Origin: Phyllosticta citribraziliensis
Lineage: Eukaryota
NCBI RefSeq assembly: GCF_038025025.1
Contig: NW_027117343.1
Coordinates: 2,294,001-2,358,000, forward strand
Length of the DNA stretch: 64,000 nucleotides
Reading direction: 5' to 3'
Of this stretch, positions 12,420-18,723 are shown one piece after another. Position 1 is the first letter of the stretch. The number at the start of each line of letters is the position of its first letter. Below the pieces are notes generated by a model. It was given only the letters and a program-made list of their open reading frames with translations, was not told where the DNA came from and searched no databases. The translations under genes were made by a program, and so were the position numbers.

Positions 12420-13383
12420 AGCAGTCGCGCCGTCTGCCTTGTGTCTATATCCTTCGATCGGGCCGTTATGTACATCACGGCATGCGCAGGGCGCTGAGTT
12501 TTTTCTTTCGGCTGCTGTATTTTCGACCCACCATTTTGAAATCTTGACTACCATTGGTATCCTGGCCCCCCTGCCTCAATCGGCCTGCTCGCGCACCTCG
12601 TTGCGTCAATATTGCCTCCGCTGCGACGACGCCAACTTGCGACGTTCGTAGCTGGAGCCTTCGCGTCTGGTTCGCCAAATTTCGCCGCAACCAACTCTCC
12701 TGAATTTTTGAAGCTACTGAAGCTACTGAATTAGGCAGTGTGCGTGCGAACCCGATGGTGTTTTATCCACTCCTACTATTCCCTGCCCCTGACTTTATCC
12801 TTGCCCTTGCCCATGTCCTTGCCCTTGATGTTGTTCTTGTCTGCAACAGTGATCGACATATCGCGAATGACATCACTTGGATGAAAATGGCTGGGCGGCA
12901 GCGGCTGCGGCGATAGATTAAGGGTAGGCTCAGGGTTCAGATTGTCGTCAGTTGGCAGTGACATGGCGGCGACGGTGGCAGCGATGGCGATGTCGAGTAG
13001 TGATGAAGAGGAAAAGGTGCGGTGGTCGTCAATACCACGGAAAGTCAACACCATGGGTGGCGGTGGTGATTGCCAGCGGACCAATCAGATGCCTGGAACA
13101 ATCACTTCAGGGAATCACAATCCGGTAGCGCGCGCGAGCGTCCGCCAGTGCGACCAGGCAGAATCAGACAGGAGGGTTCAAGATCTCAACATGGTGGGTC
13201 AGAATTACATTCGCCTTTCTTTCACCCACGATTCATTTTCCATCGTTGATAAATAAGCATATTCGTGAGTTTGTCGGGAAACATTGCCCGCTAAGGCTTG
13301 TGACAACCTTGTATTCAGACTGTTTCCTGAATTGGCAGTTTGCGATGGCTAATTTCCCGTATTCAGATCCAACTTTGTTTCCA

Positions 13384-15590
13384 TCACCTGCCAAACCTCT
13401 TCAGCTCCAACCATCTCAGCGGCGGATACACCACGGCAGCAAAGGCAAAGCCGACGTAGTTGCCCAAGTCTCCGCCGTCCTGCCCTATCTGCTTCGCTAT
13501 GGGCCCAATGTACCACACCTGGGCCATGCACATGATTGCGCCGACCCAACCTACGACAAAAGCCGTGAATGCGGCGTATCCCACGGGCAGCTTGTCCTTC
13601 TTGTTCCACGCAGTCCAGTCATAGCCCGTCTTCCAACGAAATAGCACGTGCTCTTCCAAAGTCAGAGCGATCCAGATGCAGACCCAGTAGCCCATGAGGG
13701 CAAGGAAATTCGTAAAAATTGAAGAAAGGTGAGCGCGGCCGACAGCTGCGCAGATGGTGTACACGATGACGCCGGCCGTGTTCCACAGTGCCCGAGGCAC
13801 GCGCTCGGCCCACGATCCCAGGATTTGTACGTCCACGCCGGCGCTGTACGTTGGTGGAATGAGGTTGGAAATGAGACCGAGCGCGATGACGACGCCGCAG
13901 AATTTGCCAAAAATCCCGAGCGGCGCGAAGGCTTCGACGATCAGAGCACCTTGCGACGTCTCGTAGGCTTCAGCCCAGTCCGGATTGCTGGCCATACCGC
14001 TCGCGAGACCAATGCCGAGAATGTAGACCATGGTGAAGCTGGATGTGAGACCCCCGTAAGTCACAGCAAAGACTTTCCAGCCCGGTGTGTTTGAGGGATA
14101 GTAGACGAGGTAATCGCCCGCTTCGCCCGAGTAGGTCACTGCCGCGGAGAGGCAGAGCGAGAAAAACGAGATGCGGTTGCCGATAAGAGTGCGAGTGTCG
14201 GGGGCCGAAGACGGTGTGGAGGTGTCGAACTTGGGGCCCGCGACACCCGCCAGAATGCTGAGAACTACGAGTTGCGGGAACCAAGCGTATTTCTCGTACA
14301 TGTGGAAGACGGAATAGCCAAACGTCGTGACGAACCAAGTTACGATAGCCACTATTACGATGCCGACGACGATGGAGAGGTTCGACGACGAAACGTGGGA
14401 GAGGACCTGGCCTGCGACCACGCAGTCGATGAGAGAGTAACCGAGCAATACGATTATATTGAGCGAAACGACAACCTTGGCCGGGTAGTGTCCCATGGTA
14501 TAGCGCGACTGTGCATGTGAGTTAATTGCGCAAATAGTGAGGGGTTTGGGCACTCACAAATATCATGGTCCTGTTGCCGGAACGTGGACCAAAGGTGGCG
14601 GTGTAGGAAGTGGCCAAGCAGCCGACCATCATACCAAAAACCGCACAGAGGCAGCTGTCCTTGAAGCCGAGAGAGTATACCGAAGGACCGAGCATCCCGA
14701 GTGTTATGTTATTCGCTGCGAGGTTGATTGCGAACCACAGAATCGCGACCTGCGAGTATCCCAGATTTCGCAAGTCATGTCGTTCGTGCTCCTCGACGCG
14801 CTGGATTCCGCGAGTTTCGAAATTGTATTCCGTTAGAGTGGCCTCGACGGTTGTGATCCAGCTCTTGCCCTTCTCCGTGGTAGCCGGGGGCGAAACATCT
14901 TTGTAGTCGACCGCTGAGGCTGTCTCGTCCGGCAAAGGCAGACAAGGCAAGATGCCTCTCTCAGGATCCGGCGCCCCGGGTACGCGAAGGCTGCTCATTG
15001 CACCCTGGAAACAGTCAGCACGTGGGACTCAGACAGGACAGAGGGGAAGCGCGCAGCATGCGTCCTTTCGCTAGAATTGTCTAGATCAAGTTCAACCGTA
15101 TCTCTCAGAACGACGGTTCCGTACCCGAGCCACGACTCCTACAGCAGAGAGAGTGCTGGAAAGAGTGTAACGCGCGGCAGAGCCATCGAACACCGGTCTC
15201 ATGCTGATGCTACCTTTAGATACCTTGATCCGAAAGCTTCATAGGGCGATTGGTCTGCATTCTGCCTTCCAGGTCGTACTTTGGGTTTAAGTCAAATCGA
15301 GAGGAGCAATTCCGTCGGCAAAATGCAGAGAGAATTTCTGGAAGAATGCGCCGCAGGCGATGTAAAGGGCCACAAGCTTTTTCGTCGGCTGACAGCTGTG
15401 CGGCTTGCAGTGACATGAATCAGAAGGTCTTGTCATGGGAAATGGTACAAGAAATTCTCCGGTACCGGCCCGGCAGGCATTAAACTATCTGTGCATGAGA
15501 TCTCCGTCGATCAAGCGATCTCCGAGATGCTCTCCAACCAATATAACACAACATACAGGTACGTACCCAGTGTGCACTGGATGCTGACAT
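13384..15590 (-). CDS. NCS1 purine-cytosine permease family transporter (FCY2/TPN1-like); predicted exons 15590-15567, 15004-14558, 14508-13384 (531 aa)
   Basis: ETRGIQRV, LWFAINL, GPRSGNRTMIF-SRYTMG, YEKYAWFPQ, DYLVYYP, VPRALW, NFLALMGYW, LPVGYAA, YPPLRWLE; about 12 hydrophobic segments. The 24-nt first exon splices in frame (GTACGT 15566 ... GCTGAC ... CAG 15005). The start at 15590 is less certain than the family call; ATG 14998 is the fallback. Confidence 0.9.
15054..15206 (-). ncRNA. TPP (thiamine pyrophosphate) riboswitch aptamer, intronic
   Basis: Minus strand reads CAGCATGAGACCGGTGTTCGATGG...(long P3)...CCGTCGTTCTGAGAGATACGGTTGAACTTGATCTAGACAATTCTAGCGAAAGGACGCATGCTG. P1 CAGCATG/CATGCTG, P2 GACCG/CGGTT, P3 CGATGG/CCGTCG, conserved CTGAGA, AACTTGAT, P5 CTAGA-CAAT-TCTAG, GCGAAAGG. 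Confidence 0.95.
15218..15236 (-). promoter_or_regulatory. Anti-aptamer element overlapping the proximal 5' splice site (AAG|GTATCT at 15223)
   Basis: CTTTCG-GATCAAG-GTATCT is complementary, block by block and in order, to aptamer AGATAC, CTTGATC and CGAAAG. Confidence 0.75.
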
Positions 15591-15706
15591 GGGGTTTGTT
15601 GTAGTCCACTGTTGGGCTATAAATCCACTAAACGCCGTTTCCATGCGCCCAACTCAGGCCGCCGTCGGCCGGTGGTCAGCCAAGCTTCTTGAAACGCCCG
15701 ATACAC

Positions 15707-16949
15707 TCAAAAATCGCTTTGTTTGATGACTACCAGCCGTAAGCATGTTTCTGAACACGGGAGAGCCATACCTACAGCCAACCTTCATGTTCTCCACGTC
15801 GAAAACACTGTAGAATGCTGAAAAGAATTCTCGCCCCAGCACCATGCAGCTTCCTCTTTGGGCTGATAGGACGGATCCTGAGTGGACTCTCACTGCGCAC
15901 ATTGTTTGTCCATTCTCTTCATCTTCGATCGCGTAAGCATAGTCGAATGCGGTCAGCTTGTATTCATTCTGAGCCAGCCCGATGGTAATAATGGGCAATT
16001 GTTGCCGGTGGTTGCAGGGAAAAGTAATCGTGTCGGCTGTAAATCCAGATTCCGGAGGCGAGTCAAGTGCGTTGAGTATATTCTGTAGAAATGGTCGAGG
16101 GAAAGCAAAGCCCGGGAAGTTGAAGTCGAGTTCGGCAGTGCAGTTCTCAAGCTGCACGACCAAGGAGAATCCGGAGTCAATGTGCCCGAGATATTTGGCC
16201 TCGACTGCCCAGCCGAGGGTTTCCGATGGAATCGTAGGCATCATATCGACGTCTTCCAATCTCAGCCCATGGTCCAATCCACCGAGTGTCAGCTGTCCGG
16301 ACTTGTGACCTTGCGGCAATTCGACGCCGAAGATATTTTTGTCGAGGTGACCCGCGTCCACCATGCCTGTGAAGAGGGATGACGAATCCGCGAATGAGCG
16401 ACCAAATTTCAAACCAAATACACCATGAGGGCCGGCAGAGCGTGAGTGGGTTCTTGAATGCACCCAGGTAGCTTCAGTGAAGGTCTTGTTCCAAGTGCCA
16501 TTTTGTCCAAAATTAATGACATCCCGAGCAAGGTGTCCTCGGTACAGTGTCTCTCCCCATGATATCTCCGGAATGGTAGGTCCTCTCAGGTAGGTCGAGG
16601 ATTGGTTGCTCTTGAAAACGTTCGAGTCTTCACGCCCCCGATTCCTCGATCGAGCTTTCGCACGACATGAGGCCGTTGGAACGATGAAAATGTTAGAGGT
16701 CAAATCAGGTACCATGCGAACTTTTTGCGCAGGGGTGCCAATGCCGAGCTCGAGCGTTAGCAATGAGTCCCGAGGATGCGCTCTTTCCCTCTTCCCCTGT
16801 CCAGCACCGAGTGGATGTTGAAGCAATGACTGGTCTTGTTTAGGATTTTCTAAAGATGCTGAATCATGAAGCCATTCAATCGGTATTCTCAAAATGGCGG
16901 CGTGGGCAGCTCCTGAGAGCAACAGAGAAAGGTGGAAGAATTTGAGCAT
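15707..16949 (-). CDS. Secreted pepsin-like (A1) aspartic protease homologue with degenerate catalytic motifs; intron 15775-15730
   Basis: Signal peptide; LGIGTPAQ, FKSNQSSTY, GVFGL, GQLTLGGLD, FPCN, VLGREFFSAFYSVFD, KVGF after splicing. DTG motifs read DLTS and DFNF. Confidence 0.8.
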
Positions 16950-17508
16950 GGCGTTCGGGACGAAGAGGATGTGACAAGAGCAGGGAAGACATGAGGGCCG
17001 TGGTGAGATCTTATTGTTTTTGAGCACGTAACAAGAAGCGACGAACCGTTTGAGGCCAAGAGCCGCTACCGTGTCTGTGGACTATGCTCACGGGTCATCT
17101 TTTGCAATCCTCCGGAATACGGATAACGACCTGTGCACCGACTATTGCTCCTGCTTTGGAATAGGGGTCTTGCGTCTGGGTCACTGTCAAATAGCTGCAG
17201 ACACAGGGCCTGGGAACAGGGACAAAATGCGAATGTTGAAAGGCGTGTTGATTGGGGAGGATTGGCTCCAAGCTCTACTCCGGTCAGCACTGAAATGGGG
17301 TGTTGTTTGTTGAAATGGCGACGCTGTTGGGGAGCCAAAACTGAGCTAAGCACGCTAAGGTGGGCGCTAAGCTATCGATAAGCAGCACAACAACGTCACT
17401 CGTGTATATTTCCTTGTCTTGTCCGCCGACTCACACGCTGCACTTTCGCCTGCGCATCCACCGGCACGTCTTTCAAGCTCCCGCCTCTCACGATCCACAG
17501 TCCTCGCC

Positions 17509-18723
17509 ATGCGTCTCCTCAAGAACCACATTGACCGCCGAACTGGCGCCGGCTCTGCCACTCTCCTTCCAGAGGAGCCTGAAGACATGTGGCACTGCTT
17601 CAATCTGATCCGGCCTGGCGACAAGCTCTACGCAGAAGCGGTGCGCAAAGTGACAAAAACAACTGGAGGCGTCGACAGTGTGAAGGGCAAAGGAGCGACA
17701 ACGACCAAGCGCGTCCACATGCGGCTGATGGTCCAAGTCACCAAGACCGACTTCGACCCCGGCGCATCGCAGCTTCACGTCGCTGGCGTCGTGGCAGAGG
17801 AAAACGAATACGTCGGACTGGGTCAAAGCCACACTATCGACCTCGAACTCCACCGGCAATTCAAGCTCGAAAAGGCGGATGGGTGGGATAGCATTGCGAT
17901 CGCGGCGCTGCAGGAGGCCACGGACCCGCGCCAACGCGCTGAAATTTGGGCAGTCGTCATGCAAGAGGGGCTCGCCAATATTTGCCTCATCACCGAACAC
18001 CAGACAATTCTACGGCAGCGCGTCCAGACGCCCATACCGACCAAGGGCAAGAGCGGCGCCGGCGCCCACGACAAGGGCATGGACAAGTTTTACGGGCTCG
18101 TGCTATCGACGCTGCTGCGACAAGTGGAATTGAACAACCCGCGGCCTCTGCTGCTGGCTTCGCCCGGCTTCACTGCGCAGAGCTTCCAACAGTACATCAA
18201 GCAGCACGCGGTGACGACGGGGGACAAGGCACTAAGAGCCTGGCTGCCGAGCATCATTGTCACACATAGCTCCAGCGGCCAGGTTCACTCCCTGAACGAG
18301 GTTTTGAAGAGCAAGGTCATTCAAGAAAAGCTCAGCAATACAAAATACGCGCGGGAGACGGCGCTCATGGACAAGTTTTTCGATCTGATGCGCAAGGATG
18401 ACGGAAGAGCGTGGTATGGACCGAGGGAGGTGGAGAAGGCCGTGGAAAAGGGCGCTGTCGGTCGTGGTGGGGGCGTGCTACTCATCTCCAACGCACTTTT
18501 CCGAAGTGAAGACATTGCGACGAGAAGGAGGTGGGTCTCTCTGGTGGACAAGGTCAGAGAACAAGAGGGCGGCGAAGTCAGGGTATTGAGCTCAGCACAT
18601 GAGAGCGGCAAGAGGTTGGAAGGTCTGGGCAACATTGCCGCCATCCTGACCTATCCCCTCGAGGATTTGGACGAAGAAGTTGACAAGGAGAGTGCAGAGG
18701 CTGACGGCCAGCAGCCATTATGA
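17509..18723 (+). CDS. DOM34: Pelota/Dom34 ribosome-rescue factor, intronless
   Basis: MRLLKNHID, LLPEEPEDMWHCFNLIRPGD, GQSHTIDLELHR, AVVMQEGLANICLIT, LLASPGF, AWYGPREV, HESGKRLEGLGNIAAILTYPL. Confidence 0.97.
   Translation: MRLLKNHIDRRTGAGSATLLPEEPEDMWHCFNLIRPGDKLYAEAVRKVTKTTGGVDSVKGKGATTTKRVHMRLMVQVTKTDFDPGASQLHVAGVVAEENEYVGLGQSHTIDLELHRQFKLEKADGWDSIAIAALQEATDPRQRAEIWAVVMQEGLANICLITEHQTILRQRVQTPIPTKGKSGAGAHDKGMDKFYGLVLSTLLRQVELNNPRPLLLASPGFTAQSFQQYIKQHAVTTGDKALRAWLPSIIVTHSSSGQVHSLNEVLKSKVIQEKLSNTKYARETALMDKFFDLMRKDDGRAWYGPREVEKAVEKGAVGRGGGVLLISNALFRSEDIATRRRWVSLVDKVREQEGGEVRVLSSAHESGKRLEGLGNIAAILTYPLEDLDEEVDKESAEADGQQPL

Follow-up and report, generated by a model that had tools for sequence, protein, structure and literature searches.

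The stretch of DNA analyzed here, called the window, covers 64,000 nucleotides (nt) of the genome of the fungus Phyllosticta citribraziliensis (contig NW_027117343.1, positions 2,294,001 to 2,358,000). All coordinates below refer to it. Its minus strand carries a gene for a permease of the NCS1 family, and the 5′ leader of this gene harbors an aptamer of the thiamine pyrophosphate (TPP) riboswitch type. The coding sequence comprises three parts.

14558..14998, minus strand: coding exon 1 of the NCS1 permease, 147 codons from the ATG at 14998-14996, placed by the sequence and by the N-terminus of the related proteins P0001 and P0002
14509..14557, minus strand: coding intron of 49 nt (GTGAGT ... 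CTCAC ... AG), placed by the sequence and skipped in contigs of the public RNA runs X3, X17, X5 and X12
13384..14508, minus strand: coding exon 2, including the stop codon at 13386-13384, placed by the sequence and by a product 98% identical to P0001

The predicted product has 521 amino acids, as does P0001, and its N-terminus MSSLRVPGAP is common to P0001 and P0002. Both exons score above the Pfam cut-off for PF02133 (31.5 and 26.6 bits, cut-off 23.5). The NCBIfam model of an NCS1 subfamily, TIGR00800, yields 139.2 bits and lies below its cut-off of 353.1. The model of bacterial CytX, a putative hydroxymethylpyrimidine (HMP) transporter (TIGR02358), yields 26.6 bits, far below its cut-off of 309.85, and membership of CytX was rejected. 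Since PF02133 matches and the CytX score is this low, the protein is read as an NCS1 permease and not as CytX. A search with exon 2 returned 1273 proteins, and all 120 relatives listed are permeases of the Fcy/Tpn1-like kind; the names given to the orthologs are purine-cytosine permease FCY21, vitamin B6 transporter and nucleoside transporter. The best relatives are P0001, 98% identical and with a name beginning 'Phyllosti', and a 'putative nucleoside transporter' of Phyllosticta capitalensis (87% identical). Among the solved structures of the PDB, none matches P0001 by sequence at E <= 0.001. Judged by its sequence, the host gene encodes an Fcy/Tpn1-like NCS1 permease.

The aptamer lies upstream of coding exon 1. 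Inspection of the sequence found it complete, with each of its elements at the following place.

15054..15206, minus strand: TPP aptamer with P1, P2, a long P3, CUGAGA and P4/P5, supported by sequence, fold, covariance models and conservation in orthologs
15206-15200 with 15060-15054, minus strand: P1, CAGCATG with CATGCTG
15198-15194 with 15098-15094, minus strand: P2, GACCG with CGGTT
between the two strands of P2, minus strand: P3, a long stem
15108-15103, minus strand: CTGAGA
15092-15085, minus strand: AACTTGAT
15084-15071, minus strand: P5, CTAGA-CAAT-TCTAG
15071-15064, minus strand: GCGAAAGG

P1 may extend inwards by the pair G15198-C15062 over one A.G mismatch. The ligand pocket of the Rfam family RF00059 (THI element) is defined by CUGAGA together with ACYUGAUC ... 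GCG ... GGA. The corresponding motifs are present in the window as CTGAGA at 15108-15103 and as AACTTGATC ... GCGAAAGGA at 15092-15063, and the pocket columns are invariant in all 21 rows of an alignment of aptamers described below. Furthermore, the minimum-free-energy fold of 15214-15046 contains P1, P2, P3 and P4/P5. The energy of this fold is not better than that of shuffled sequence (z -0.27), and energy alone is for this reason uninformative about the aptamer. The aptamer of the window is 154 nt long; among 47 distinct aligned rows the shortest has 101 nt, the longest 195 and the median is 138.

Two covariance models were used, R1 with the window included and R2 built from 22 orthologous aptamers with the window excluded. 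Searched against both strands of the window, R2 has a single match, at 15206-15053 (86.8 bits, E 3.2e-19), and the alignment covers model positions 1-119. The aptamer is real and more than a chance resemblance. By its motifs the element is a TPP riboswitch, and it would be expected to bind TPP.

Conservation was studied in metagenomic loci, which were fetched with an alignment of 12 permease orthologs. The best 80 of 165 confirmed stretches were retained; they encode permeases that are 54-67% identical. R1 matches the window and 63 of the 80 loci, always on the coding strand and just upstream of the permease. The match is strong in 61 of the 80 (E <= 9.6e-10) and weaker in L047 (E 1.3e-3) and L046 (E 0.78). 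In 12 of the 17 remaining loci (L002, L009, L011, L025, L055, L058-L062, L070 and L080) the DNA ahead of the predicted start is too short, and five (L049, L050, L065, L077 and L078) gave no match with enough upstream DNA.

One of these five, L049, carries at 2080-2345 what appears by eye to be an aptamer that has diverged, with one more hairpin after CTGAGA and a lengthened P5; both models missed it. This locus retains GTACGA, an ATG, GGATCAAG|GTAAAT and GCTGAC...CAG. The spacing of the motifs is the same in L050, which is for this reason read as the same divergent aptamer.

The structure was tested by imposing the standard TPP pairing on 21 aptamers aligned with MAFFT. In these rows 94.5% of the cells pair, compared with 26-45% when the partners are slid by 1-3 columns. 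Both sides change in six pairs (22 cells), located in P1, P2, P3 and P5, and none of 500 shuffles reached the covariation score. In P5, for example, the CTAG/CTAG of the window is replaced by CAGG/CCTG, CTGG/CCAG or CGAG/CTCG. When 47 distinct rows are aligned to R1, 94.1% of the cells pair and ten pairs change on both sides (79 cells), in an alignment that is fitted to the model and so biased towards the structure. The three-way junction of P1, the P2-P3 arm and the P4-P5 arm is thus present with covariation support.

The position of the aptamer relative to the transcript was examined with contigs of four public RNA runs, placed on 13300-15800. The organism of X3 is about 95% alike to the window. 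X5 and X12 belong to one study and to another relative, which shared only 0.07 of the sampled words yet is 90-95% alike once placed on the window. X17 is a mixture of at least three related transcriptomes. The contigs and the sequence delimit an intron in the 5′ leader.

15005..15223, minus strand: riboswitch intron of 219 nt (GTATCT ... GCTGAC ... CAG), from a joint in an X3 contig
15014..15019, minus strand: branch-site-like GCTGAC, 35 nt past the aptamer, read from the sequence; a CTRAY-like motif and an AG precede the main ATG in orthologs
15007-15005, minus strand: acceptor CAG, from the sequence and the X3 joint

A contig of 1657 nt in X3 (record 12) joins 15003 to 15223. The joint reads CT..AC on the plus strand and, with the cut moved by +1, GT..AG on the minus strand. 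It removes 15223-15005 with the whole aptamer, and the main ATG follows 6 nt past the acceptor. The letters which replace the coding intron in the same contig read, once reverse-complemented, as the start of exon 2 of P0001, and the contig is therefore RNA. A second X3 contig (15103-15252) represents the unspliced form, and a third runs from 15223 through 15729 into an upstream gene for an aspartyl protease. The first-pass annotation of the window, made from its letters, had claimed a complete minus-strand TPP aptamer inside an intron, followed after about 35 nt by a GCTGAC branch site and by a CAG acceptor at 15005, on a gene for an FCY2/TPN1-like NCS1 permease. These claims are borne out by the elements and the R2 score, by the intron removed and the acceptor used in X3, and by the PF02133 match and the names of the orthologs.

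Upstream of the aptamer, three further features suggest how it could act on gene expression.

15224..15230, minus strand: exon end GATCAAG before the proximal donor, complementary to CTTGATC at 15090-15084, the 5′ strand of P4/P5
15240..15260, minus strand: two upstream ATGs, at 15260-15258 and 15242-15240, between the donors, read from the sequence
15274..15279, minus strand: candidate distal 5′ splice site caaa|GTACGA with its GT at 15279-15278, read from the sequence; GTAYG is conserved in orthologs

The layout was examined in 110 nt on each side of 46 distinct aptamers (the window and 45 loci), and features were counted in the 47 distinct rows of alignment A3, which includes the window and to which L046 was added. 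The common order is A/GTACG, about 50-70 nt with an ATG (often ATGCAG), GATCAAG|GTA, 8-20 nt and the aptamer. Past the aptamer follow a CTRAY branch motif, YAG and, some 3-27 nt on, the main ATG (42 nt in the weakly matching L046). The proximal donor, in the window GATCAAG|GTATCT with its GT at 15223-15222, is represented by an AG|GT at most 32 nt upstream of the aptamer in 45 of the 47 rows, and the exon ends exactly in GATCAAG in 30 of them. A GTAYG occurs 35-85 nt upstream of the proximal donor in 39/47 rows, and an ATG lies between the donors in 45/47.

These ATGs have consequences for translation. After splicing from the proximal donor, both upstream ATGs of the window open frames of 26 and 20 codons which cross the main ATG out of frame and end at the TGA 14963-14961. 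Such an out-of-frame upstream open reading frame (ORF) over the main ATG is found after proximal splicing in 39 of the 47 rows, and some upstream ORF in 43. Splicing from 15279 to 15005 would take out both upstream ATGs.

The exon end is also a potential partner of the aptamer, as GATCAAG is the exact complement of CTTGATC in P4/P5. Of the duplexes that the donor region can form with the 3′ half of the aptamer, the best falls on the 5′ strand of P4 in 37 of 45 rows, with a median z of -2.28 against shuffled sequences, and at most 5% of the shuffles are as good in 26/45. In the window alone the signal is modest, the duplex of a 20-nt donor region reaching -16.2 kcal/mol (shuffle mean -10.4).

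A second GT (aaag|GTAGCA, 15208-15213, minus strand) lies between the proximal donor and P1, and may be a further alternative donor. Several orthologs, e.g. L018, L022, L030 and L032, have cag|GTAA directly before P1.

We consider it likely that the permease gene is controlled by a TPP riboswitch in its 219-nt leader intron, most plausibly as an OFF switch of the NMT1 type. At low TPP, the CUUGAUC strand of the aptamer would pair with the exon end GAUCAAG and hide the proximal donor at 15223. Splicing would then join the distal donor at 15279 to the acceptor at 15005, the messenger RNA would lack the upstream ATGs at 15260 and 15242, and the permease would be made. At high TPP, the aptamer closed by its ligand would free the proximal donor. 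The resulting RNA, spliced 15224|15004 or left unspliced, would retain the upstream ATGs, and the frame that crosses the main ATG would block translation of the permease. The forms seen in the public RNA, namely proximally spliced, unspliced and with a skip of 50 nt described below, would all be unproductive and would fit growth with ample thiamine. Judging by the regulation alone, the cargo of the permease is probably thiamine or one of its moieties.

Several observations weigh against this interpretation. All the RNA evidence comes from relatives (about 95% and about 93% alike) and not from the strain of the window. No distal-donor junction (15280|15004) occurs in the four runs, in which contigs show presence rather than absence and drop rare forms. 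X5 and X12 show another product than those expected, the 50-nt skip. The permease leader in X3 runs on unbroken from the 3′ end of the protease transcript. For the window alone, a donor region of 16 nt gives a weak duplex (-10.9 kcal/mol, a level that 13 of 200 shuffles also reach). Both GATCAAG and CTTGATC are nearly invariant, so there is little true covariation behind the proposed pairing. Lastly, RF00059 gave no match at its gathering score over the whole 64-kb window, and in a scan of 901 bases its score was 33.1 bits (E 1.7e-4), where gathering requires 54.3. The first-pass annotation had proposed this search as a check, and the match that it gives falls short of the gathering score.

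The low score is probably due to the long P3. In the RF00059 alignment of the window, P3 is wrongly set as a short stem within the actual long one, and P1 is misplaced or poor. This lukewarm result was the reason to seek relatives of the host gene. When 20 ortholog loci (from the range L001-L046) were scanned, RF00059 reached its gathering score just upstream of the gene in three (L019 with 56.4, L017 with 56.1 and L029 with 55.7 bits). The aptamers of these three have a short P3, and their sequence is plainly homologous to that of the window. R1 matches all 20 loci, 19 of them at E <= 1e-9. With three loci recovered by one model and 20 by the other, standard annotation pipelines that use the Rfam gathering score will miss most members of the class.

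Four other explanations were weighed. The one that survives best, though we regard it as unlikely, is that the aptamer controls only the removal or retention of the intron 15223-15005, e.g. by hiding the branch site or the acceptor, and that GTACGA is no working donor. X3 contains the proximally spliced and the unspliced form only, as this would predict. In X17 the riboswitch-intron region (14980-15320) is covered without a joint at a summed contig depth of 251-355, which is exon-like, compared with 29.6 in the bin of the coding intron. These depths hint at retention of the riboswitch intron, but contig depths are poor measures. Moreover, the upstream ATGs persist in both X3 forms, neither of which would then be translated well into permease, and the productive form would be missing. 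Control of a single intron also hardly explains why GTAYG recurs at a fixed upstream distance in 39/47 rows and an ATG between the donors in 45/47.

The second explanation concerns the product seen in X5 and X12.

15005..15054, minus strand: 50-nt stretch skipped in RNA contigs of the second relative (X5 and X12), a possible mini-intron

In these contigs 15003 is joined to 15054 with nothing between, so that 15004-15053 is skipped. The joint has one ambiguous base; if it is shifted by that base, the ends read GC..AG and the acceptor base is that of the X3 joint. The same contigs keep 15054-15252, in which 7 of 199 letters differ, and the coding intron is spliced from them. The 50 nt are either deleted in this relative or removed as a mini-intron. 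That Phyllosticta relatives possess such a mini-intron (15054-15005) as a third splicing option, with a donor that begins at the last base of P1 and with the shared acceptor, seems rather doubtful. If they do, the closure of P1 driven by TPP would itself mask a splice donor, a coupling that would be new in that it is not described in the literature on fungal TPP switches that was consulted. It is less probable still, and in our opinion improbable, that the switch in this lineage acts on the mini-intron, the donor abutting the 3′ strand of P1 being masked as P1 closes. The two runs that show the joint, with the acceptor base of X3 and GC..AG ends after the shift, come from one study and from another species, in which those 50 nt may be deleted. 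As a donor, GCGCGC is poor, and nothing donor-like follows P1 in 46 orthologous rows. Furthermore, a product that still carries the upstream ATGs and the aptamer would hardly be productive.

A long-distance switch like that of Neurospora NCU01977, with a far-upstream donor such as the GTACGT near 15566, appears very improbable. An ATG at 15590 followed by TGG|GTACGT would be in frame with GGTGCAATG past the acceptor, and the first-pass annotation had implied such a far-upstream exon by the span it gave for a reverse transcription PCR. This exon is left unsupported, the conserved donors being those at 15279 and 15223. No GT..AG joint from 15566 is present in the four runs (where, again, contigs show presence and not absence), and the X3 and X17 contigs continue across 15566. 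The only other joint in the leader connects 15525 to 15677 in X17, at a depth of 7.25 and a side of 30, and has non-canonical ends. The observed intron of 219 nt compares with 650-900 nt in the NCU01977 type, the transporter is of a different family, and the conserved elements all lie within 80 nt of the aptamer.

Finally, a chance look-alike or a decayed, functionless relic, which the RF00059 score below gathering and a fold energy no better than shuffles might suggest, is scarcely credible in view of the independent R2 match (E 3e-19), the intact aptamer motifs, the conservation in 61-63 of the 80 loci and the low divergence of the aptamer region in X5 (7/199, compared with 31/446 in the adjoining exon).

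Some observations concern the surroundings. The upstream gene on the same strand, at 15654-17081 (minus), encodes an aspartyl protease (PF00026, 110.7 bits). Its last intron, 46 nt at 15730-15775 (minus), is spliced in the X3 contig that runs unbroken to 15223, and this continuity means that the 3′ end of the protease gene and the permease leader overlap or that transcription reads through. An open frame of 450 amino acids at 17371-18723 (plus) may encode a ribosome-rescue factor of the Dom34/Pelota type. One X12 contig of 210 nt matches only 15068-15101, a 34-nt aptamer core, and its flanks on either side are unrelated; it probably represents a different TPP riboswitch, from another gene or organism in the sample.

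Several known systems resemble the one described here. Bacterial CytX is likewise a permease of the NCS1 fold that is tied to thiamine metabolism, and it is reportedly regulated by THI elements; the match of the present permease to it is weak, as given above.

In fungi, Neurospora NCU01977 and Candida DUR31 offer a second parallel, a transporter gene under a TPP aptamer that acts via splicing (PMC3597705 and PMC5997356, in the sections that treat these genes). They differ in their host, a sodium:solute symporter of the DUR3-like kind, in an internal intron of 650-900 nt and in long-range pairing of the 3′ strand of P1 (PMC3597705 and sections of PMC5882874). With an NCS1 host and a 219-nt intron in the leader, the present switch does not belong to this type (Type II). 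A 2025 paper on thiamine in powdery mildews is, in its accessible part, about DUR31 and not about the NCS1 permease family.

The closest mechanistic model is NMT1 of Neurospora crassa, studied by Cheah et al. 2007 and summarized in the relevant section of Li & Breaker 2013 (PMC3597705). In the absence of TPP the proximal donor is blocked by P4/P5 nucleotides, splicing then starts from the distal donor and the main ORF is translated; when TPP is present the proximal donor becomes accessible, and the product contains upstream ORFs that preclude expression (PMC3597705 and parts of PMC5882874). In both genes an intron precedes the main ORF and a P4/P5 strand is complementary to the proximal donor; the second, distal donor of NMT1 has a candidate counterpart in the permease gene. 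In NMT1 the product with upstream ORFs forms at high TPP, a direction of control that we infer for the permease gene. NMT1 encodes an HMP phosphate synthase, whereas the present host is a transporter.

TPP riboswitches on genes of this transporter family are already in print for related fungi. In the part of Mukherjee et al. 2018 (PMC5882874) that lists them, TPP riboswitches lie in the 5′ untranslated region (UTR) or intron of 'nucleoside transporter' genes of many Dothideomycetes and Eurotiomycetes, including Aureobasidium, Bipolaris, Pyrenophora, Parastagonospora, Verruconis, Neofusicoccum parvum and many Aspergillus. Most are of Type I, defined there by a 5′-UTR intron, two donors and an upstream ORF. 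In the window, too, the aptamer sits within an intron that precedes the main ORF, as seen in the X3 contig of the relative that is about 95% alike. Neofusicoccum parvum is, we assume, of the same order as the source fungus, Botryosphaeriales. Part 1 of 4 of Supplementary Data S1 of Mukherjee 2018 (PMC5882874) has no Phyllosticta in its Dothideomycetes rows, and other supplements may list more species. By arithmetic, the B. maydis gene in the rows available (1602 nt, 2 exons) fits P0055 (516 amino acids) with an intron of about 51 nt, and the P. teres gene (1626 nt) fits P0023 (523 amino acids). According to the pertinent passage of Donovan et al. 2018 (PMC5997356), such host genes, among them AN4526.2 of A. 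nidulans, resemble Tpn1 and Fcy21, and Moldovan et al. 2018 found further cases as 'putative transporters'.

As far as the consulted parts of PMC8786325 and PMC5997356 go, the published nucleoside-transporter cases rest on sequence analysis alone, and the first of these, a modelling paper on A. oryzae (RNA Biol 2022), says that experimental validation is lacking. Our literature search found no experiment on nucleoside-transporter TPP riboswitches, and AN4526 turned up in Donovan 2018 (PMC5997356) alone. It is fair to call the context little studied, as the first-pass annotation did. It is not new, since Mukherjee 2018 and Donovan 2018 list it in the parts cited.

The nucleoside-transporter class (TPPsw-NUC) shares with the present gene its host family and an aptamer that ends tens of nt before the coding start. 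To this class, known from sequence analysis only, the window adds a well-supported case from a plant-associated genus of Dothideomycetes. Compared with the published members, RNA contigs of relatives here show the intron being removed, and the platform was measured over 47 distinct sequences. In these contigs one relative splices out the aptamer-bearing intron, and others process it in a different way. The NMT1-like platform as a whole recurs in most of the 47 rows, which points to precise mutations by which the switch can be tested.

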